A stretch of DNA of 64,000 nucleotides from Peptococcaceae bacterium BICA1-8 (GCA_000802045.1 JUEF01000135.1:8287-72286), one strand, 5' to 3'; positions 4,955 to 50,500 are shown, numbered from the stretch's first letter. Program-made: numbers and translations. Notes: generated by a model from the sequence alone, not told the origin.

Positions 4955-5055
4955 GGAAAGGGAAGTACTTGCTATGTTAGCATATATTTAATAGATAGGG
5001 ATATAATTGTATCATGCTGAATCCCTGAAGCATTTTCATAATATTTTCCCGTTGG

Positions 5056-5088
5056 TAGGGGCAGACCTGTGTATGTGCGTCTGCCCTA
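5056..5088. repeat. REP-like GC-rich hairpin (TAGGGGCAGAC ... GTCTGCCCTA)
   Basis: Near-perfect inverted repeat. Belongs to the GTAGGGG-hairpin class also seen at 23396, 23549 and 34771. Confidence 0.7.
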
Positions 5089-7259: not shown

Positions 7260-7278
7260 GAAGAGGAAGGTATTATGT

Positions 7279-8004
7279 ATGGACAATCTAAAACAAAAAA
7301 AATATAAAGACCTATTGGAAAAACTTAAAGGGGAGTATAGTGAATTAATTAACTCATTAGAACAAGGATTAAATGATCCAATGAGTTGGACAACTTCAGA
7401 GCTCTCTTTATATGATAACCATCCTGCTGATGTAGCTAGTGAAGTTTATGAAAGAGGGAAAGACATCGGCTTTAAAACTTACGCTTTAGAGCAGATTGAA
7501 AAGGTAGAAGATGCTTTAGAAAGATTAGAACAAGGGAAGTATGGCACTTGTGATAAATGCGGCCAGTTTATTCCTGAAGAAAGGCTAGATACAATTCCCT
7601 TAACAACAATGTGTGTTAAATGTCGAAAAGAGGAATGGGAGGATGGAACCCAATATAACCTAAAAGCCAGGAGACCTGTAGAAGAAGAAGTGGTAATGCC
7701 GCCCTTTGGTGGGGAAACCAACGATACCTTTGAAGACAAATTAGGACAAGGATTAGATCTTAATGAATTCGATGGCGAGGATTCTTGGCAAGCCGTTGCC
7801 CGTTATGGCACTTCTGAGTCCCCTAGTGATATAGGAAGTGTCCTCAATTATAACAATACATATTATGATTATGATGAGGATATAGGAACAGTGGAGACGT
7901 ATGAACAGATTCCCGTATACAAGGATGAGGATGGGCAGTTTTATCAAGATTTTAAAGGATTAGATGATGAGGATGGACCACCCGATGCCCATGATGAAGA
8001 TTAG
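7279..8004 (+). CDS. DksA/TraR C4 zinc-finger protein, YteA/YlyA-like, with acidic C-terminal tail
   Basis: CDKCGQFIPEERL...CVKC zinc finger. Position upstream of lspA matches Bacillus ylyA synteny. Confidence 0.8.
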   Translation: MDNLKQKKYKDLLEKLKGEYSELINSLEQGLNDPMSWTTSELSLYDNHPADVASEVYERGKDIGFKTYALEQIEKVEDALERLEQGKYGTCDKCGQFIPEERLDTIPLTTMCVKCRKEEWEDGTQYNLKARRPVEEEVVMPPFGGETNDTFEDKLGQGLDLNEFDGEDSWQAVARYGTSESPSDIGSVLNYNNTYYDYDEDIGTVETYEQIPVYKDEDGQFYQDFKGLDDEDGPPDAHDED

Positions 8005-8599: not shown

Positions 8600-8619
8600 G
8601 CCTGGCTTTAACACCTATT

Positions 8620-8810
8620 ATTTAACCACGGGCCCCTTCAGGGCACACGGATATACACGGTTAAAAAAATAAATAATATTAAAAATTATTTGTCTATCCT
8701 GAATGAGGCAAAACCCTAATTCATTACTATGGAAGTACTTATTGTTGCTGTGTCATCTCCTAATCCATACCGTGTTCATCTGTGTGCCCCAGAGGGGCCC
8801 GTGGTTAAAT
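8620..8810. mobile_element. MITE/BIME-like 191-bp element bounded by 33-bp inverted repeats
   Basis: Left end is ATTTAACCACGGGCCCCTTCAGGGCACACGGAT. The reverse complement of the right end is ATTTAACCACGGGCCCCTCTGGGGCACACAGAT (29/33 identical). No ORF inside. Confidence 0.6.
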
Positions 8811-14664: not shown

Positions 14665-16002
14665 TTATACTGTTAATACTGGAATTGGGAATATAACGCC
14701 ACTGAGTAGTAACCAAGCAACTAATAAGGTTAATACTAGGTTAAAGCTTTGACCTACAATGTATAACCAAAGTGGCTTACCGCCTTGGACAAGCTCAGCC
14801 ATTTCTTTAAAGTTGGACTCAAGGCCGATACAGACAAATGCCATACAGAAGCACCAGCCCTTCCAGCCACCTGTTAGACCTAATAGAGTTTTTGTTTCTT
14901 TAGCACCAATTGCCGGCTCAACAATAAAGGAGAAGATTAAAGACGCACCAATAAAACCAAGGATAAATTTGGGGAAACGGTGCCAGATTTCATCTGCTCC
15001 CACAGAAGGTCCGTCAACATCTTTCTCAACTTTTGTTGCAAAAAATACAGCAATGGCAAAAGCAATAACACCAATTAATACGTTTTGAATCATTTTAACA
15101 AGAGCAGCAACCTGACCCCCTAGTGGCCCTAATGCTTCACCGGCTAATACAACAGCACCTGTTGCGTCAACTGTACCACCGATCCAAGCACCGCCAACCA
15201 TAGGATCCATACCAATAGCTTTAATAAAGATAGGCATACCAACCATCATTAAAACTGTAAAAATTAAGGATAAGCCAATTGCAAAGGTTAAATCGTCCTT
15301 TTTAGCTTTGGAAGCGGCTGCTGCAGCGATAGCGGCTGAAACACCACAAACAGAAGTAGCAGTAGCGATAACTATTACCATAGGCTTACTGGTCATTTTA
15401 AGTATTTTTGTACCATAATGCCACATGAAAATAATTACGATAGGAGTAACGAACCAAGCAATACCTAAACCATAGATACCAAATTTAACTACATTGGAGA
15501 AAAGAACCTCAGCACCCATTAAAACCAGACCGGTTTTAATGTAGTATTCAGTTTTTACAGCAGGCTTTAACCAATCGGGAGTTTTTACAGTATTACTTAC
15601 TAAAAGACCTACTGCTAATGCCCAGAAAGCATACTCTACATATTTTTTCATAGTTGCTTGAGCACCTAATATATAGGCAATTGTAGCTAAGAGGAATATT
15701 ACAGGGAAGGCAATTGCAAATTTAGGTACGTTTTCGCCCATAAATACTAATCCAATTGAAAAAAGAGCAGTTAATACAACCATTGTGATTAGTAAACTAG
15801 CAATATCAAAAGAACCTAAGAAACTTGGAACCTTTTCGGTTCCCCATGTTGCGATCTTGGATGCATTAAACTTAAAAGCTCCTGTGGATTTACTGATAGC
15901 AGCTATTATAATTACGATAAGTCCAAGCCAAATTGCCCACCAGTCTTCTTTCTTTATTAAATCCGACCATTTAAACTTACTAGCTGTTACGACATCTGAC
16001 AT
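14665..16002 (-). CDS. YeiH/UPF0324 family membrane transporter (putative sulfate-exporter family), paralog 1
   Basis: Polytopic, 445 aa. Start moved to MSDVV (16002) by alignment with the paralogs and a GGAGGTG RBS 8 nt upstream. Confidence 0.9.
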   Translation of the reverse strand: MSDVVTASKFKWSDLIKKEDWWAIWLGLIVIIIAAISKSTGAFKFNASKIATWGTEKVPSFLGSFDIASLLITMVVLTALFSIGLVFMGENVPKFAIAFPVIFLLATIAYILGAQATMKKYVEYAFWALAVGLLVSNTVKTPDWLKPAVKTEYYIKTGLVLMGAEVLFSNVVKFGIYGLGIAWFVTPIVIIFMWHYGTKILKMTSKPMVIVIATATSVCGVSAAIAAAAASKAKKDDLTFAIGLSLIFTVLMMVGMPIFIKAIGMDPMVGGAWIGGTVDATGAVVLAGEALGPLGGQVAALVKMIQNVLIGVIAFAIAVFFATKVEKDVDGPSVGADEIWHRFPKFILGFIGASLIFSFIVEPAIGAKETKTLLGLTGGWKGWCFCMAFVCIGLESNFKEMAELVQGGKPLWLYIVGQSFNLVLTLLVAWLLLSGVIFPIPVLTV

Positions 16003-16383
16003 ATAAAGCACCTCCAAAATTTAAAATATTTTATAGGGTATTTGAACAATTAATTTTTTTAATCCCTCCTTATAATTTAGATAAATAACGCCGCGGTACA
16101 GTCATTGAGCATATTGATGCTGTCATACACACAAATTTAGGGTGTGTTTTAATTATAAGTTATCAAAAAAAATCTTTATATCATTCTTTAATACCATCTT
16201 TATTAAATGCATTAGGAAAATTTATTAATTTAGGAAAAAGCATTTGTTGAACTAAAAAATTAAGATAATGCAGGTAGATGAAATTAGACTAAATCTCATA
16301 ATAATAAAATAAAGAGGCCAGATGGCCGCTTTAAAAGGAAATAATTATTCAATTATCATTTTTCGTAGTAGTAGCATTTTAGT

Positions 16384-16424: not shown

Positions 16425-17768
16425 TTATACTGTTAATACTGGAATTGGGAAGATAACGCCGCTTAGTAATAACCAGGCTACTAATAAGGTTAATACTAAG
16501 TTAAAGCTTTGTCCCACGACATACAGCCAAAGTGGCTTACCACCTTGAACAAGCTCAGCCATGTCCTTGAAGTTAGACTCAAGACCAATTGATACGAAGG
16601 CCATGCAGAAGCACCATGCTTTCCAACTTCCAGATAAGGAAAGTATAGCTTTAGTATCCTTTGTACCTATTGAAGGCTCAACCAAGAAGGAGAATATTAT
16701 CGATCCTACAATAAAACCAAGAATAAATTTAGGGAAACGGTGCCAAATTTCATCGGCGCCCACAGAGGGTCCATCAACATCTTTTTCAACTTTTGTTGCA
16801 AAAAATACGGCAATGGCAAAAGCGATAACACCAATAAGAACGTTTTGAATCATTTTAACCAGAGCAGCAACTTGACCTGCTAATGGCCCTAAGGTTTCTC
16901 CGGCAAGTACAACTGCACCGGTAGCATCAATGGTTCCACCCATCCATGCTCCACCAAGCATCTCATTCATACCAATAGCTTTAATGAACATAGGCATGAA
17001 GACCATCATTAATACGGTGAAGATAAGGGTTAAACCGATGGCAAAGGTTAAGTCTTCTTTCTTTGCTTTAGAAGCAGCGGCAGCGGCAATAGCTGCAGAA
17101 ACCCCGCAAACCGAAGTAGCTGTCGCAATAACGATAACCATAGGTTTGCTGGTCATTTTCAAGATTTTGGTACCATAATACCACATAAAGACTATAACAA
17201 TTGGAGTAACAAACCAAGCAATACCTAGACCGTAGAAACCAAATTTAACAACATTGGAGAATAGTACTTCAGCACCCATCAGTACAAGACCTGTTTTAAT
17301 ATAGTATTCTGTTTTAACGGCCGGCTTTAGCCACTCGGGGGTTTTTACGGTATTACTTACCGCAAGTCCGACCACTAGTGCCCAGAAGGCGTACTCAATA
17401 TATTTTTTCATTGTGGCTTGAGCACCAAATACATAAGCAATTGTTGCTAAGATAAAAACAACAGGGAAGGCGATTAAGAAGCCTTTCACATCTTCTCCCA
17501 TAACTTTAAGACCGAGAGCAAATAATGCACCTAGTACAATTAGACTGAAAATTAATAAGCCTACTTGACCATTAAAAGCATCCATAATGCTAGGCGCCTT
17601 TTCATTTCCCCAAGTAGCTATTTTGGCGGCCTTAAAGGCGAAAGCACCTGTAAATTTACTTATTGCTGCTAAAGCTAATACAATGAATCCAAGCCAAATT
17701 GCCCACCAATCTTCTTTCTTTGTTAAATCAGACCATTTAAACTTACTAGCTGTTACGATATCTGACAT
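16425..17768 (-). CDS. YeiH/UPF0324 family membrane transporter, paralog 2
   Basis: 447 aa. Very similar to paralog 1, including an identical C-terminus LLSGVIFPIPVLTV. Confidence 0.9.
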   Translation of the reverse strand: MSDIVTASKFKWSDLTKKEDWWAIWLGFIVLALAAISKFTGAFAFKAAKIATWGNEKAPSIMDAFNGQVGLLIFSLIVLGALFALGLKVMGEDVKGFLIAFPVVFILATIAYVFGAQATMKKYIEYAFWALVVGLAVSNTVKTPEWLKPAVKTEYYIKTGLVLMGAEVLFSNVVKFGFYGLGIAWFVTPIVIVFMWYYGTKILKMTSKPMVIVIATATSVCGVSAAIAAAAASKAKKEDLTFAIGLTLIFTVLMMVFMPMFIKAIGMNEMLGGAWMGGTIDATGAVVLAGETLGPLAGQVAALVKMIQNVLIGVIAFAIAVFFATKVEKDVDGPSVGADEIWHRFPKFILGFIVGSIIFSFLVEPSIGTKDTKAILSLSGSWKAWCFCMAFVSIGLESNFKDMAELVQGGKPLWLYVVGQSFNLVLTLLVAWLLLSGVIFPIPVLTV

Positions 17769-18499: not shown

Positions 18500-19843
18500 T
18501 TACATTGTTAAATTGGGTATTGGGAAGATAATTCCACTTAACAGCAACCAAGCCACTAAGAGAGTTAATACTAAGTTAAAGGTTTGACCAACAATGTATA
18601 ACATTAATGGCTTGCCGCCTTGTACAAGCTCAGCCATATCTTTAAAGTTAGATTCTAATCCTATACAGGTAAAGGCCAGACAGAAGCACCATCCTCTAAA
18701 GCCTTTAGCTAAGCCCGTAACGCCCTTTGTTCCAGCTGCACCCAAAACGGGTTCTACTATAAAGGAAAAAATGACTGAGGCTGCTATGAAACCAAGGATG
18801 AATTTTGGGAAGCGATGCCAGATTTCACTAGCTCCTACAGCAGGGCCGTCGACATCTTTGTCTACTTTAGTTGCAAAAAATACAGCTATGGCGAAGGCGA
18901 TAACGCCTATAAGTACGTTTTGAATCATTTTAACCATTGCAGCTACTTGACCAGCCAAAGGTCCCAATGCTTCTCCAGCAAGAACAACTGCACCGGTAGC
19001 ATCAATTGTTCCACCCATCCAGGCTCCACCTATCATTTCGTTCATGCCAATAGCTTTAATAATCATAGGCATGAAGATCATCATTATAACTGTAAAAATG
19101 AGGGTTAAACCAATGGCGAAAGTTAAATCTTCTTTTTTAGCTTTAGAAGCTGCAGCAGCGGCAATGGCTGCCGAAACACCACAAACAGAAGTCGCGGTAG
19201 CGATTACAATAATCATGGGTTTGCTAACCATTTTTAATACTCTAGTACCGTAATACCACATAAATATTACTACTATTGGAGTAACAAACCAGGCTATACC
19301 TAATCCGTAAATACCGAATTTTACAATGTTTGAAAAGAGAACTCCAGAACCCATTACAACCAAACCTGTTTTTATATAATACTCTGTCTTAACAGCTGGT
19401 TTTAGCCATTCAGGGGTCTTTATAGTATTGCTAACCAAAAGACCAATAGCCAGCGCCCAAAAAGCGTAGCCTAAATAGTTTTTTATGCCGGCATTAGCTG
19501 AAAAGAGATAGGCTAATGTTGAAAGAATGAATACTACCGGGAAACCAATGAGGAATTTCCCAACATCACCGCCCATTACTTTCAGACCGATAGCGAATAA
19601 AGCGCCTAGTATTATCATTGTTATTAATAATGATGGTAAAGTACCATTAAAGGAATCAAAAATACTAGGTGCTTTCTCTACACCCCAGGTATTAAGTTTA
19701 GCGGCTTTAAAGCTAAAAGTACCAGTAGTAGAACTAATAAATGAGAGAATAAGGATAATAAATCCAAGCCAAATTGCCCACCAATCTTCTTTATTGATAA
19801 GATCTTTCCATTCAAACTTACTAGTCGTTACGACATCAGACAT
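18500..19843 (-). CDS. YeiH/UPF0324 family membrane transporter, paralog 3 (most diverged)
   Basis: 447 aa, collinear with paralogs 1 and 2. AGGAGGTG RBS. Confidence 0.9.
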   Translation of the reverse strand: MSDVVTTSKFEWKDLINKEDWWAIWLGFIILILSFISSTTGTFSFKAAKLNTWGVEKAPSIFDSFNGTLPSLLITMIILGALFAIGLKVMGGDVGKFLIGFPVVFILSTLAYLFSANAGIKNYLGYAFWALAIGLLVSNTIKTPEWLKPAVKTEYYIKTGLVVMGSGVLFSNIVKFGIYGLGIAWFVTPIVVIFMWYYGTRVLKMVSKPMIIVIATATSVCGVSAAIAAAAASKAKKEDLTFAIGLTLIFTVIMMIFMPMIIKAIGMNEMIGGAWMGGTIDATGAVVLAGEALGPLAGQVAAMVKMIQNVLIGVIAFAIAVFFATKVDKDVDGPAVGASEIWHRFPKFILGFIAASVIFSFIVEPVLGAAGTKGVTGLAKGFRGWCFCLAFTCIGLESNFKDMAELVQGGKPLMLYIVGQTFNLVLTLLVAWLLLSGIIFPIPNLTM

Positions 19844-22526: not shown

Positions 22527-23399
22527 ATGGAATTTCCTCAATGGGATATTCTAATTATCGGTTGTGGGCCCGCTGGGCTTTCAGCGGCGGTAAATGCGAC
22601 AATTCGTAACAAAAAGGCAATAGTATATGGCGGAGAGTTTTGCAGTCCCAAGCTTCATAAAGCTCCACATGTCAATAACTATTTAGGTTTCTGGGATGTA
22701 TCAGGAGAAGAATTGCGGAAAAAATATCTCAATCATGTTCAACAGTTAGATATAAAAATGGAATGTCATAAAATTGATAATATTTACCCTGCCGGGAAAT
22801 CTTTTAATGTTGTCAGTAAGGGCAATATGATTATGTGTAATGCAATAATAATTGCAGTAGGCTTGCAAAATCCTAAATACCTGCCAGGAGAAGAGGAACT
22901 GTTGGGCAAGGGTGTGGGTTATTGTGCTACCTGTGATGGCCCTTTGTATAAAGGGAAAAAGGTTGCAGTAATTGGTTATAACACAGAGGCAGAGGAAGAG
23001 GTTAACTATTTGGCCGGGTTAGCTAGCCAAGTTATATATCTTCCGTTGTATCAAGGGCTAGGAAGTATCGACAGTAGAGTTCGAATTTTAAATGAAAGAC
23101 CCAAGGCTCTATTAGGTACAGATAGATTACAAGCACTAGAAACGGAAGGGGAAACCCTAGAACTAGATGGATTATTTATTATTCGGGATAGTGTTCCTCC
23201 AGCTCAGCTTTTGCCTGGCTTGGAGCTTGAGGAAAACGCAATAGTAGTAAATAGAAAAATGTCTACAAATATAACCGGTGTATTTGCTGCCGGTGACTGC
23301 ACCGGTGCCCCTTATCAGCTGGCCAAAGCAGTAGGTGAAGGAGCAGTTGCAGGACTAAGTGCTGTGAGTTATTTGGAAGAAATGAATAAGGGAAAGTAG
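22527..23399 (+). CDS. Thioredoxin-reductase-like flavoprotein with a CATC redox motif but no recognisable NADPH-binding motifs
   Basis: IIGCGPAGLSAA FAD fingerprint and a CATCDG active site. The position of GGGxSA reads GYNTEA, and no HRRxxxR motif follows. Confidence 0.8.
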   Translation: MEFPQWDILIIGCGPAGLSAAVNATIRNKKAIVYGGEFCSPKLHKAPHVNNYLGFWDVSGEELRKKYLNHVQQLDIKMECHKIDNIYPAGKSFNVVSKGNMIMCNAIIIAVGLQNPKYLPGEEELLGKGVGYCATCDGPLYKGKKVAVIGYNTEAEEEVNYLAGLASQVIYLPLYQGLGSIDSRVRILNERPKALLGTDRLQALETEGETLELDGLFIIRDSVPPAQLLPGLELEENAIVVNRKMSTNITGVFAAGDCTGAPYQLAKAVGEGAVAGLSAVSYLEEMNKGK

Positions 23400-23496
23400 G
23401 GGGGCGCATTGCGCGTCCTACCTCATTCTCTTGTGTAATAATCATCCTGTGAATATGATTAGGCATAATCATATGTTTTTCAATAGTAACACCTGC
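23396..23496 (-). pseudogene. Remnant of an IS200/IS605-type (COG1943/RAYT-like) Y1 transposase; HUH strand only
   Basis: The minus-strand frame reads AGVTIEKHMIMPNHIHRMIITQENEVGRAMRPP. MPNHIH is the HUH hallmark. The frame is bounded by a stop upstream and runs into the antisense of the TrxR-like gene. Confidence 0.5.
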
Positions 23497-23570
23497 TCAA
23501 AATTTTGAATCAAATTATCAATTTTTTACTGATATTGGATGACCCACTGACGCGCAATGCGCGCCCCTAC
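23396..23570. mobile_element. 175-bp element bounded by 22-bp inverted REP-like hairpins, containing an HUH-transposase fragment
   Basis: GTAGGGGGGCGCATTGCGCGTC at 23396. The reverse complement of 23549-23570 is GTAGGGGCGCGCATTGCGCGTC (21/22 identical). Confidence 0.65.
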
Positions 23571-23598
23571 GACATTAATAAAAAAGACACCCGCCTTA

Positions 23599-25389
23599 TC
23601 AGAGCCCGGTATCTTTTTTGAGTAATTCTAAAGCTTTTTCTTCATCAGGTGTAATATAAATGGTTTTTTGGTTTTCATATATTACCATACCTGGTTTTGC
23701 TCCCCCGGGTTTTTTTACATGTTTTCTTAAAGTATAGTCTACAGGTACCTGTGCGGAATAACGTCCCTTGCTATAATAGGCTGCAAGATTAGCGGCTGTG
23801 TCTAAGATGCTTTTGGGAATTTCTTTTTTATCAGGATTTTTAATAATTACATGGGAACCTGGGATATCCTTGACGTGGAGCCATAAGTCATCATTCTTAC
23901 CTAACTTAAAAGTTACATAGTCATTTTGTTTGTTGTTTTTTCCAAGCAATATCTTATAATCTGAAATAGCAATTGCTAGGGGCTCTGACTGAGCATTACT
24001 TTTAACCTTATTTTTATTTTTTTGCGGCCGGGCTTTAACATACCCGGCTTCTTCTAATTCCCATCTAATATCCTGCAGATCCTGGGGATTATCAGATCCA
24101 TCTAGACTATTCTTAATGCTTTCCAAATAACCTAATTCTTCAATTGTGATTTTGCTTTGTTCAAGGGTTTTTTCGGAACCTACTTTGGCTTTACTGTACT
24201 TTTTAAAATACTTTTGCGCATTTTCATTAGGCGTTAAGTTTGGTTCTAGAGTAATAGCAATATTCTCCAATTCCTCTGAGTAAAAATTGGAAACTATTGC
24301 CTCTTGCCCTTGCTTGAGATTGTGCAAATTTGCAGTAATAAGTTCTCCCCATAATTTATATTTGGCGGCTATCTCAACCTCTGCGATTTTTTCCAGCTGC
24401 AGAGCTAATTTACGCTGGCAGCGGTCTAGTTCTCTATCAATTATTTTATCTAGGTCTCCGGATTTTTGTTTAAAGAAATTTGTTTCCTCACTTTTACCGA
24501 TGAAAGATTCTATCAAATCACCCATAGAAGAATGTGTTTCTTGTACTAAACCGTCAAACTGCTGCAAGGAAAAGGGAGCAAAAGCAAAAGGCTTGCCCTC
24601 AGTATCTCTGACAAGTGTTGGTTGGTATGTCTGGGATAATATCAGGGTTTTTAACCAGTTTAGACTTTTCCAAAGACTTAAGTATTCATATTCACCTAAA
24701 AATTCCAGACTGTTTTCCAAATCAATTCCAGCTCGAACAGTTAATTCTTTAGCCGTTTGGGGTCCAAAACCTTCCATTATATTAAGTAAAGCTTTATGAA
24801 CCTTTTGTTCGGGGGGCAGATTTTGAAATCTCTCAACTAGGGTTTCTTCAGTTATTTCCTCAAGCTTAACTTTTTCCTGGGGTGGTGGAGAAATATAAGG
24901 GGCCCCCGGTAGTATTTCGCGGTATTGATTTACTGCATGACTTAAGCGTTTAATACTATCAAGAATTATTCTTTCGTTTTGTTTTATCAAAATTAGATTA
25001 CTGTGTTTTCCCATAAACTCTCCGATGAGAATTTTACTCACCTTATCTCCTAATTCATCAAAACCTTCTAATATAAAGTGAACAATTCTTTCTAAACCTT
25101 GTTGTTCAATATTTACAATTTTACTACCTTCTAGGTGCTTTCTCAGAACCATACAAAACAAGGGGGGCTGGAGAGGGTTTTGTCTGGCAGTATTGGTTAA
25201 ATTGAAGCGAGCACTTTGGGGTTTTACGGTAATTAAAAGCCGTAGGTTTTTACCTGGCTGTCTAATTGTCATAACTAGAGTATTGTGATCAGGCTGTTGT
25301 ATCTTATCTATTCTACCGCCAATTAACTGAGGCTTCAGTTCATCAACTAAAGCTCTTATGGCTATACCGTCTAATGACAAGTTAGTCAC
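23599..25389 (-). CDS. rqcH: NFACT-family ribosome quality control protein (fibronectin-binding protein A / YloA)
   Basis: 596 aa. N-terminus LDGIAIRALVDEL...RIDKIQQP and a C-terminal DUF814-type region. AGGAGGTG RBS. yloA-yloB synteny. Confidence 0.85.
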   Translation of the reverse strand: MTNLSLDGIAIRALVDELKPQLIGGRIDKIQQPDHNTLVMTIRQPGKNLRLLITVKPQSARFNLTNTARQNPLQPPLFCMVLRKHLEGSKIVNIEQQGLERIVHFILEGFDELGDKVSKILIGEFMGKHSNLILIKQNERIILDSIKRLSHAVNQYREILPGAPYISPPPQEKVKLEEITEETLVERFQNLPPEQKVHKALLNIMEGFGPQTAKELTVRAGIDLENSLEFLGEYEYLSLWKSLNWLKTLILSQTYQPTLVRDTEGKPFAFAPFSLQQFDGLVQETHSSMGDLIESFIGKSEETNFFKQKSGDLDKIIDRELDRCQRKLALQLEKIAEVEIAAKYKLWGELITANLHNLKQGQEAIVSNFYSEELENIAITLEPNLTPNENAQKYFKKYSKAKVGSEKTLEQSKITIEELGYLESIKNSLDGSDNPQDLQDIRWELEEAGYVKARPQKNKNKVKSNAQSEPLAIAISDYKILLGKNNKQNDYVTFKLGKNDDLWLHVKDIPGSHVIIKNPDKKEIPKSILDTAANLAAYYSKGRYSAQVPVDYTLRKHVKKPGGAKPGMVIYENQKTIYITPDEEKALELLKKDTGL

Positions 25390-34708: not shown

Positions 34709-34966
34709 TATTAAACCACGGGCCCCAATGGGGCACACGGATAAATGTCCTGTTCTATCAGGTATTCTTTGTAGGGGCGCGCATTGCGCGTCCGACTTCA
34801 CTTCTTAGTCCATAATATGCTAAAATACAATTAACAAAAAATATCACCATGGACCATTCGCCAAACTAACATGACACAAAACGTCATCAACAGAATATGA
34901 ATATAGTTTAATCCCTAAATAATTAATCTGCGTTAACCGTGTGCCCTGTAGGGGCCCGTGGTTTGA
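34709..34966. mobile_element. Second MITE/BIME-like element (258 bp) with the same inverted ends as 8620-8810 and a nested GTAGGGGCGCGCATTGCGCG hairpin
   Basis: Left end is ATTAAACCACGGGCCCCAATGGGGCACACGGATA. The reverse complement of the right end is ATCAAACCACGGGCCCCTACAGGGCACACGGTTA. The interior is unrelated to the 8.6-kb copy. Confidence 0.6.
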
Positions 34967-34979
34967 TAAAATGCTTTTT

Positions 34980-50214: not shown

Positions 50215-50500
50215 GTTTTATTAGTGGGCGAGTGGGCGAGAAGTATTATTTAACCACGGGCCCCTCCGGGGCACACCGATAAACACTGTTAAACGATAAG
50301 TGACTAAATTAATGGTTGATGCATCCCTTAAGTTAGACCTTTGAGCAGATGCATCCTGTAATTTTCACTTGCATCGGGTGCCTCCTAATCGGTGACACGG
50401 TAGCACGTCAAGGAAAGCTAGACATTCATGTTCACACGTCCTTACTAGTCACAGATCCCCGGCCACTGAGTACGAATCCCGAAAGACTGTCCCCTAATAC
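50215..50500 (+). repeat. Composite of dispersed repeat modules between the riboswitch terminator and ribU
   Basis: TAGTGGGCGAGTGGGCGAG (50222-50240). Solo ATTTAACCACGGGCCCCTCCGGGGCACACCGAT end (50248-50281). GATGCATC units (50318, 50348). AAGCTAGAC, TAGTCAC, TACGAATCCCGAAAG and TGTCCCC words (50415-50495). Confidence 0.85.

Follow-up and report, generated by a model that had tools for sequence, protein, structure and literature searches.

A RAYT gene fragment between paired REP hairpins at the end of a thioredoxin-reductase-like gene in Peptococcaceae bacterium BICA1-8

The spacer between two convergent genes of Peptococcaceae bacterium BICA1-8 contains a 175-bp element (positions 23396-23570 of the 64,000-nt stretch analysed here, called the window throughout) that is bounded by two inverted repetitive extragenic palindrome (REP) hairpins. 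We found that this element holds precisely the segment lying between two in-frame hairpins, H1 and H2, in intact genes of a large family of REP-associated tyrosine transposases (RAYT, also called TnpA_REP). It is a fragment of a RAYT gene and not a gene: the relic cannot make the enzyme, because strand beta1 and the catalytic-tyrosine helix are missing and two stop codons and a frameshift interrupt what is left. The reading that we favour, with a probability of about 0.6, is that the element is a non-coding, non-autonomous relic in which the cassette of a RAYT gene that runs from H1 through helix alphaA, strand beta2 and the HUH strand to H2 was copied into a REP site.

Anatomy and identity of the 175-bp element

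The BICA1-8 assembly, which includes KJS81448.1, is a metagenome-assembled genome (MAG). The element lies between the gene for a thioredoxin-reductase-like (TrxR-like) flavoprotein (open reading frame (ORF) 22527-23399, 290 aa, PF07992) and an NFACT/RqcH-like gene, and two independent assemblies agree on the 200-nt gap between the two. An earlier note on this DNA had described two inverted, GC-rich and self-complementary repeats around the element, with the TAG stop of the TrxR-like gene inside the left one and a minus-strand HUH peptide whose GRAMRPP residues are encoded by the hairpin, and all of this was borne out. The arms occupy 23396-23417 and 23549-23570 (22 nt each, 21/22 or 95% complementary, 131 nt apart), the stop codon lies in the GTAG foot of the left arm, and translation returned the expected peptide (Table 1). 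The hairpins, termed REP-like in that note, are GTAG-footed REPs: as a REP is defined, each window hairpin has a 5' GT[AG]G foot with a stem-loop immediately after it. The two can also form one long hairpin, as the inverted REPs of a REPIN (REP doublet forming a hairpin) do. As single-stranded DNA the arms pair with each other with a dG of -37.5 kcal/mol (z -6.4 against shuffles), and each arm folds on its own as well, the left one in the double-foot form GTAGG...CCTAC. With at most one mismatch, the 20-mer GTAGGGGCGCGCATTGCGCG occurs at three sites in the window (23396 on the plus strand with one mismatch, 23551 on the minus strand and 34771 on the plus strand) and at none in 100 shuffles. 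On the minus strand the right arm is read in another frame, as VGARIARQ... followed by KIDNLIQNFEQ, and the two stop codons lie upstream of the open 33-codon reading. Beyond H2 there is neither a tyrosine helix (Y---NP) nor a WQ motif, and family proteins matched nothing outside 23380-23610 when compared with the window by tblastn.

General searches did not recognise the fragment. The earlier note had looked to a Pfam Y1_Tnp (PF01797) match for its identification, and there the expectation failed: Pfam returned no family for the 33-aa or the 77-aa minus-strand peptide, phmmer with the 33-aa fragment gave no match among 1.84 billion representative proteins, and a word-indexed protein search with a 44-aa frameshift-corrected composite gave no candidates. 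In NCBIfam the fragment matched NF047646, REP-associated tyrosine transposase, at an E-value of 0.01 and 15.7 bits against a model cut-off of 80 bits. Its significance comes solely from targeted sequence comparison with the family. Family proteins matched the fragment by tblastn with a best E-value of 1.6e-8 and identities of up to 64% over 33 residues. When the residues encoded by the hairpins were stripped from the queries, 136/194 still matched at E<1e-3 (best 5e-6), and none of these queries matched elsewhere in the window, where an intact RAYT copy was likewise not found. The fragment is assigned to a Y1/HUH enzyme of the RAYT branch and not to IS200 proper, as judged by the intact relatives described below.

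The same data bear on the idea of an ordinary REPIN or REP doublet in which the spacer of the element resembles an HUH peptide by chance. The empty Pfam and phmmer results agree with it, as does the observation that doublets of the same hairpin elsewhere enclose unrelated spacers of 47, 127 and 174 nt. Against it stand the matches of the stripped queries, which fall on this one place in 64 kb, the order and spacing of H1, MPNHIH and H2 together with the frame of H2, which are those of the family, and a resemblance between the spacer and family genes around the HUH codons at the DNA level too. The geometry and the tblastn results already contradict chance resemblance, and we regard it as extremely improbable.

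Table 1 Coordinates of the element and of related hairpins in the window
Feature	Position	Strand	Remarks
Left REP hairpin, GTAGGGGGGCGCATTGCGCGTCCTAC	23396-23421	+	Corresponds to in-gene H2; minus strand codes (V)GRAMRPP; double-foot fold; matches aa 95-102, GRAMRAPT, of intact relatives
TAG stop of TrxR-like gene	23397-23399	+	Provided by GTAG foot of left REP
Open 33-codon RAYT ORF relic, AGVTIEKHMIMPNHIHRMIITQENEVGRAMRPP	23398-23496	-	beta2, HUH strand and H2 loop; GRAMRPP coded by hairpin
MPNHIH codons (HUH motif)	23449-23466	-	Aligns to invariant M80 P81 N82 H83 H85 of family alignment A1
Degenerate cassette part, helix alphaA	23497-23548	-	Two stops and one frameshift (three frames read); H1-to-MPNH distance about 16-23 nt below family-typical
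Right REP hairpin, GTAGGGGCGCGCATTGCGCGTC (minus-strand reading)	23549-23570	-	Corresponds to in-gene H1; codes VGARIAR(Q); inner half truncated; matches aa 38-45, VGARIARP, of intact relatives
Solo REP, sequence as in element, GTAGGGGCGCGCATTGCGCGTCCGAC	34771-34796	+	Folds as hairpin; inside 260-bp element with unrelated 36-nt inverted ends
Variant GTAG-footed hairpin, GTAGGGGCAGAC...GTCTGCCC	5055-5086	+	Foot shared, stem different; folds

Paired in-frame REPs in intact relatives

The hairpin sequence led to intact relatives of the fragment. At four loci (L023, L098, L006 and L004) the hairpin lies in an ORF of about 160 codons, antisense and directly after MPNH(I/V)H, where it codes GRAMRAPT, and a second, inverted hairpin 162-174 nt upstream codes VGARIARP; the genes of L023, L098 and L006 encode 160-aa proteins. 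These relatives matched NF047646 (REP_Tyr_transpos) at E 1e-17 with 61-64 bits, which is under the equivalog cut-off, so that they represent a related subfamily and not the modelled one. Their match to Pfam Y1_Tnp was weak. The best sequence match in the PDB was 4ER8, the E. coli TnpA_REP (E 1.5e-5), relative to which the GRAMRA residues are an insertion. An AlphaFold model of an intact relative (pLDDT, the predicted local distance difference test score, 82.9) again gave 4ER8 as the top Foldseek match (E 8.8e-9, TM 0.64), followed at ranks 2-30 by IS608 and ISDra2 transposases. The Y1 origin proposed in the earlier note thus stands as far as the RAYT branch is concerned (NF047646, 4ER8), and not for IS200 proper, whose model NF033573 matched at E 3e-3. 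The family has at least 7989 members (7989/8000 scored candidates at E<=1e-5), some of which carry the name 'REP element-mobilizing transposase RayT'. Invariant positions in alignment A1 include the HUH histidines, W123/Q124 and two tyrosines in Y138/Y144-I-x-x-N-P; the tyrosine motif reads YID(T/E/G)NP, which fits Y---NP and not NNP. This is a very large RAYT/TnpA_REP-like family, centred on Clostridia with gut MAGs.

To see the hairpins in a sample chosen blind to their sequence, we used 80 metagenome loci retrieved through MPNH and N-terminal peptide patterns, 74 of which had a gene with the HUH motif. An inverted repeat of 22-31 nt was present in 50/74 genes, against 8 in the direct-orientation control. 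The arms keep their places relative to MPNH, H1 starting about 120-130 nt before it and H2 ending about 65-78 nt after it. They are hairpins on a GTAG foot, with stems that vary strongly from gene to gene (for example GTAGGGGCGGATATCATCCGCCCG, GTAGGGGCGCACAGTGTGCGCCCG and GTAGGGCGCGACGACCTCGGCGCGCC), and the peptides that they encode are therefore varied yet paired, as in VGADIIRP/GRMISAPT, VGAHSVRP/GRTLCAPT and VGRDDLGAP/GAPRSSRPT. Compared with the reverse complement of H2, the variable core of H1 was identical at 10.2/12 positions within a gene and at 4.5/12 between genes. In a set of 21 distinct variants of 24 nt, every Watson-Crick type was present at the three inner stem pairs, with 33 double-sided changes against 8 in shuffles; the variants had been pre-selected for at least 7/8 pairs, so that the paired percentage itself is not independent evidence. 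In the model both hairpin peptides map to its two loops of low confidence, residues 41-50 (beta1-alphaA) and 91-100 (HUH strand to next helix), with H2 at aa 95-102 between E83-90 and H103-118. H1 and H2 are thus in-frame parts of the ORF, inverted and located in two surface loops, and the gene itself holds a REPIN-like REP pair. In two genes the loop units have been multiplied in tandem with the frame intact: that at L006 2443-2982 reads GRAMHAPTGRAMRAPT and VGAAIGRPPEIGRPPEI, and that at L184 2414-3070 has six in-ORF copies.

The window element agrees with this family arrangement in the order of H1, MPNHIH and H2, in spacing and in the reading frame of H2. Its H1 lies at -104 relative to MPNH, where -120 to -127 is typical of the 74 family genes, and the end of its H2 at +71, and the whole cassette is 7-19 nt shorter than those of L004, L023 and L098. 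The hairpins had been described as flanking a transposase fossil. They do bound a degenerate fragment, but they are not external flanks, since both are in-frame parts of the ORF in the intact family.

The hairpin itself is widespread. An exact scan for the hairpin pattern, with a single genome for each species, gave at least 120 stretches from about 59 assemblies. Among the matches listed, hosts included Oscillospiraceae, Acutalibacteraceae, Gracilibacteraceae, Defluviitaleaceae, Bulleidia, Petroclostridium, Christensenella, three Synergistaceae MAGs and others, and most matches were intergenic single hairpins or inverted doublets with a genome-specific spacing of 47, 127 or 174 nt. Many doublets of fixed spacing were seen among these matches in Gracilibacteraceae Nc350_bin127 (47 nt) and Oscillospiraceae RGIG9086 (127 nt). 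Other genomes carry the same 20-mer at multiple loci, and its identity in the roughly 59 assemblies listed, which belong to different families and to both Synergistaceae and Bacillota, points by sequence to horizontal spread of this REP type.

From the in-gene pair one may go further and picture a REPIN that is part of the ORF itself. The two inverted REPs on either side of the HUH strand would then act as the master copy that seeds genomic REPs and doublets, would be transferred horizontally together with the gene, and could be excised, which would kill the gene (L042/L093), or copied elsewhere, as in the window. We think this unlikely as a whole. If true, it would explain the identical 20-mer in so many assemblies, Synergistaceae included, and would mean that transposase and cargo are physically interleaved, a self-limiting arrangement.

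State of the site in relatives and origin of the cassette

The same site was compared at syntenic loci of relatives. At L206 (TrxR 92% identical) it holds one double-foot REP, GTAGGGGCGCGCATTGCGCGCGCCTAC, with flanks as in the window, i.e. the TrxR stop within GTAG on the left and GACATTAAT on the right; the two states, 175 bp in the window and 27 bp in L206, differ solely by the segment between the palindromic cores. This comparison is based on the raw sequences and blastn, as a MAFFT pairwise alignment placed the large gap wrongly. At L207 (TrxR 81%) the stop codon carries a REP variant, the spacer, about 330 nt long, is unrelated, and the right REP has degenerated. Family-protein tblastn matches in that spacer (E 0.007-0.2) were discarded, being out of order with the REP for a gene and not significant for about 200 queries. 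L203-205 (TrxR 94%) lack a REP, and their gene ends two codons sooner. The TrxR stop lies in a REP foot in three lineages (GTAG in the window and L206, CTAG in L207), and L203 has a TAA stop followed by AAGTGA where the REP-bearing lineages have AAGTAG; the REP may have been inserted at the present TrxR stop or may have created it. These syntenic loci indicate that the REP site is old and that the HUH-bearing spacer is specific to the window lineage. Apart from re-assemblies of the same locus, no second copy of the spacer (23422-23548) was found in the window or in 207 loci, and a population of near-identical doublets, such as a REPIN would be expected to form, was not seen in these loci and the 64 kb of the source genome that the window covers.

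We favour a copied cassette over decay in place because in the relative L206 the same flanks enclose one double-foot REP. A putative donor RAYT gene at another place in the genome would have been the source of the cassette, and the copy would have entered the REP site between the convergent genes, possibly by in-trans action of a RAYT on the two inverted REPs, which it would treat like a REPIN, or else by REP-to-REP recombination or gene conversion. In the sister lineage the pair would have collapsed later or never expanded, leaving the single double-foot REP; a published route by which a central deletion in an inverted REP dimer can yield a double-foot REP (PMC6006769) fits the difference between the window and L206. 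The N-terminal 37 and C-terminal 58 codons of the RAYT gene have left no trace and have no space at the locus, as the H2 foot is the TrxR stop and H1 lies 28 nt from the NFACT stop. The reciprocal product of such a detachment does exist: RAYT-like genes at L042 (3479-3776) and L093 (about 7264-7566) have lost the H1-H2 cassette and kept one fused double-foot palindrome.

The alternative is decay in place of a full-length RAYT gene that formerly occupied the space between the TrxR-like gene and the NFACT gene, by deletions that happened to end at the in-gene REPs, for instance through recombination with neighbouring REPs. Decayed or internally deleted family copies do occur in other genomes (a pseudogene at L120 3430-3637 that keeps an N-terminal piece, a gene at L004 3462-3797 truncated after residue 109, and L042/L093), REPs are palindromes prone to recombination, and the window relic has its stops and frameshift. 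Such decay would require two deletions, both exactly at hairpin feet, one of them joining GTAG in frame to the end of TrxR some 6-8 nt past the ancestral TAA seen in L203. As L206 has the same flanks on a single REP, these boundaries must either have arisen on two occasions or be older than the split, but the HUH spacer still shares 50-64% identity with intact proteins, and outside the hairpins there is no residual similarity. We therefore consider decay in place rather unlikely, though not negligible. A further short, low-score match, at L029 2370-2468, showed no HUH relic on inspection and was set aside.

Several points weigh against the copied cassette all the same. Just one detached cassette, that of the window, was found among about 150 hairpin sites and about 94 family-related regions, so there is no sign that cassettes proliferate. 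The irregularly deleted pseudogenes of L120 and L004 show that deletion-driven decay is common in the family. The change between the window and L206 may have run in either direction, and the fragment alone was not significant in Pfam or in phmmer. Moreover, the presumed action of the family on its hairpins is modelled on E. coli TnpA_REP (4ER8; literature cited in PMC6006769).

As to its present role, the element probably does no more than give the TrxR-like transcript hairpins at its 3' end. A different view holds that a host function has been retained and that the RAYT origin is incidental, the element serving as a bidirectional transcription barrier, an mRNA-stabilising hairpin or a small antisense transcript. 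Its position between convergent genes with the stop of one embedded in the hairpin, the persistence of a REP at the TrxR stop in three lineages and the strong long-range fold speak for such a function, and REPs stabilise upstream mRNA in E. coli. By analogy with E. coli REP biology, the hairpins might, for example, stabilise the 3' end of TrxR here. However, scans for promoters, terminators and Rfam families (23200-23800) gave no relevant terminator-like site or Rfam family, L203, the closest locus by TrxR identity (94%), has no REP there, and L206 and L207 lack the HUH spacer, which is thus itself not conserved. A retained host function appears improbable.

Relation to known REP systems and other repeats in the window

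Established knowledge covers GTAG-footed REPs, the TnpA_REP/RAYT enzymes that bind and cleave them, REPtrons and REPINs (PMC3116915, PMC3733652, PMC5581495, PMC6006769), and the in-frame hairpin is an already published feature: in subclass 2.4, tnpA_REP genes contain REPs within their own reading frame (Quentin, Siguier, Chandler & Fichant 2018, PMC6006769). This subclass, reported mainly from Cyanobacteria and Bacteroidetes, corresponds to RAYT Group 4 of Bertels et al. 2017 (PMC5581495) and has the motifs NH[IFV]H, WQ and YIxNNP, long and double-foot REPs, and variable insertions 'generally between HuH and Y' in addition to flanking REPs (PMC6006769). Judged by features alone, the present family would belong there. 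It shares NH[IFV]H, WQ and the class 2 tyrosine signature Y---NP, as well as long or double-foot GTAG-footed REPs (double-foot in the left REP of the window, L206 and L042), and the place described for in-frame REPs in that subclass, between the HuH strand (beta3) and alphaC, is exactly that of H2. The family differs in that a second REP, H1, sits in the beta1-alphaA loop, inverted and co-varying with H2, in that YIxNNP is matched in part (YIDxNP), in that it is centred on Clostridia, and in that it mostly lacks flanking copies, no further copy of the gene's own REP being present within 2.5 kb outside the ORF in 47/53 genes. In the REPtron and REPIN literature cited above we found no second in-frame REP in the beta1-alphaA loop, fixed inverted pairing with co-variation, scarcity of flanking copies or detached cassette.

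Other known systems show the same mixture of likeness and difference. E. coli TnpA_REP binds the hairpin, a REP being a GTAG foot plus hairpin, and cleaves single-stranded DNA at the foot (PMC6006769, PMC3733652). The E. coli enzyme (4ER8) is the best sequence and fold match of the intact relatives, but in E. coli the REPs flank the gene whereas in this family they belong to it and are translated, the H2 peptide is inserted when compared with 4ER8, and the family scores below the 80-bit cut-off of NF047646. A single-copy RAYT is proposed to mobilise REPINs in trans (Bertels & Rainey 2011, PMC3116915). Like them, the window element consists of two inverted REPs able to pair into one long hairpin; unlike them, it has a long spacer that is itself a piece of a transposase ORF, and a single copy was seen in 64 kb of the source genome. 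With IS200/IS605 elements (IS608, ISDra2) the family shares the Y1/HUH fold and the use of DNA hairpins, which in those elements are subterminal and recognised on single-stranded DNA. It differs from them by its weaker match (NF033573), by Y---NP in place of Y---Q and by hairpins that are inverted within the ORF and not subterminal ends on the same strand.

The element is accordingly an example of a largely known system and no new kind of system. It modestly extends the 2018 report of in-frame REPs to a fixed, co-varying inverted pair in a very large family of Clostridia and gut MAGs, a pair that can be deleted from the gene or detached from it. The GC-rich hairpins of this genome are GTAG-type REPs tied to a RAYT-type enzyme, which explains the repeat class that supplies the stop codon of a host gene. 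As the earlier note supposed, an enzyme of this family may have spread some of the repeats of this genome. The family also offers a potential handle on RAYT-REP matching and on the origin of REP doublets.

The window contains three copies of the REP and one variant; the two further hairpins listed in the earlier note, which map to 34771 and 5055-5086, both fold. No HUH relic lies beside the 34771 copy, where the family match is limited to hairpin-coded residues. The foot motif GTAGGGGC occurs six times in the window against 1.4 expected, two of the six (60554 and 61079) being ordinary coding sequence. A generic scan of the window for GT[AG]G plus hairpin was uninformative, with 28 sites against 26 in shuffles, and only the GTAGGGGC foot was informative.

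A second, unrelated repeat family has palindromic ends of about 36 nt, TTAAACCACGGGCCCC(loop)GGGGCACACGGATA, which form inverted pairs around elements of about 190 bp (8618-8653 / 8775-8810) and 260 bp (34709-34744 / 34933-34968), with a single copy at 50246-50283. The 260-bp member contains the solo REP at 34771, and an end resembling this repeat family (TTTAACCACGGG) lies in the TrxR/NFACT spacer of L203. Elsewhere in the window, three tandem PF03601 paralogues (Cons_hypoth698, YeiH-like membrane protein, 447-450 aa) are encoded on the minus strand at 14665-16017, 16425-17768 and 18500-19843, and the GC skew flips in the stretch that holds them.

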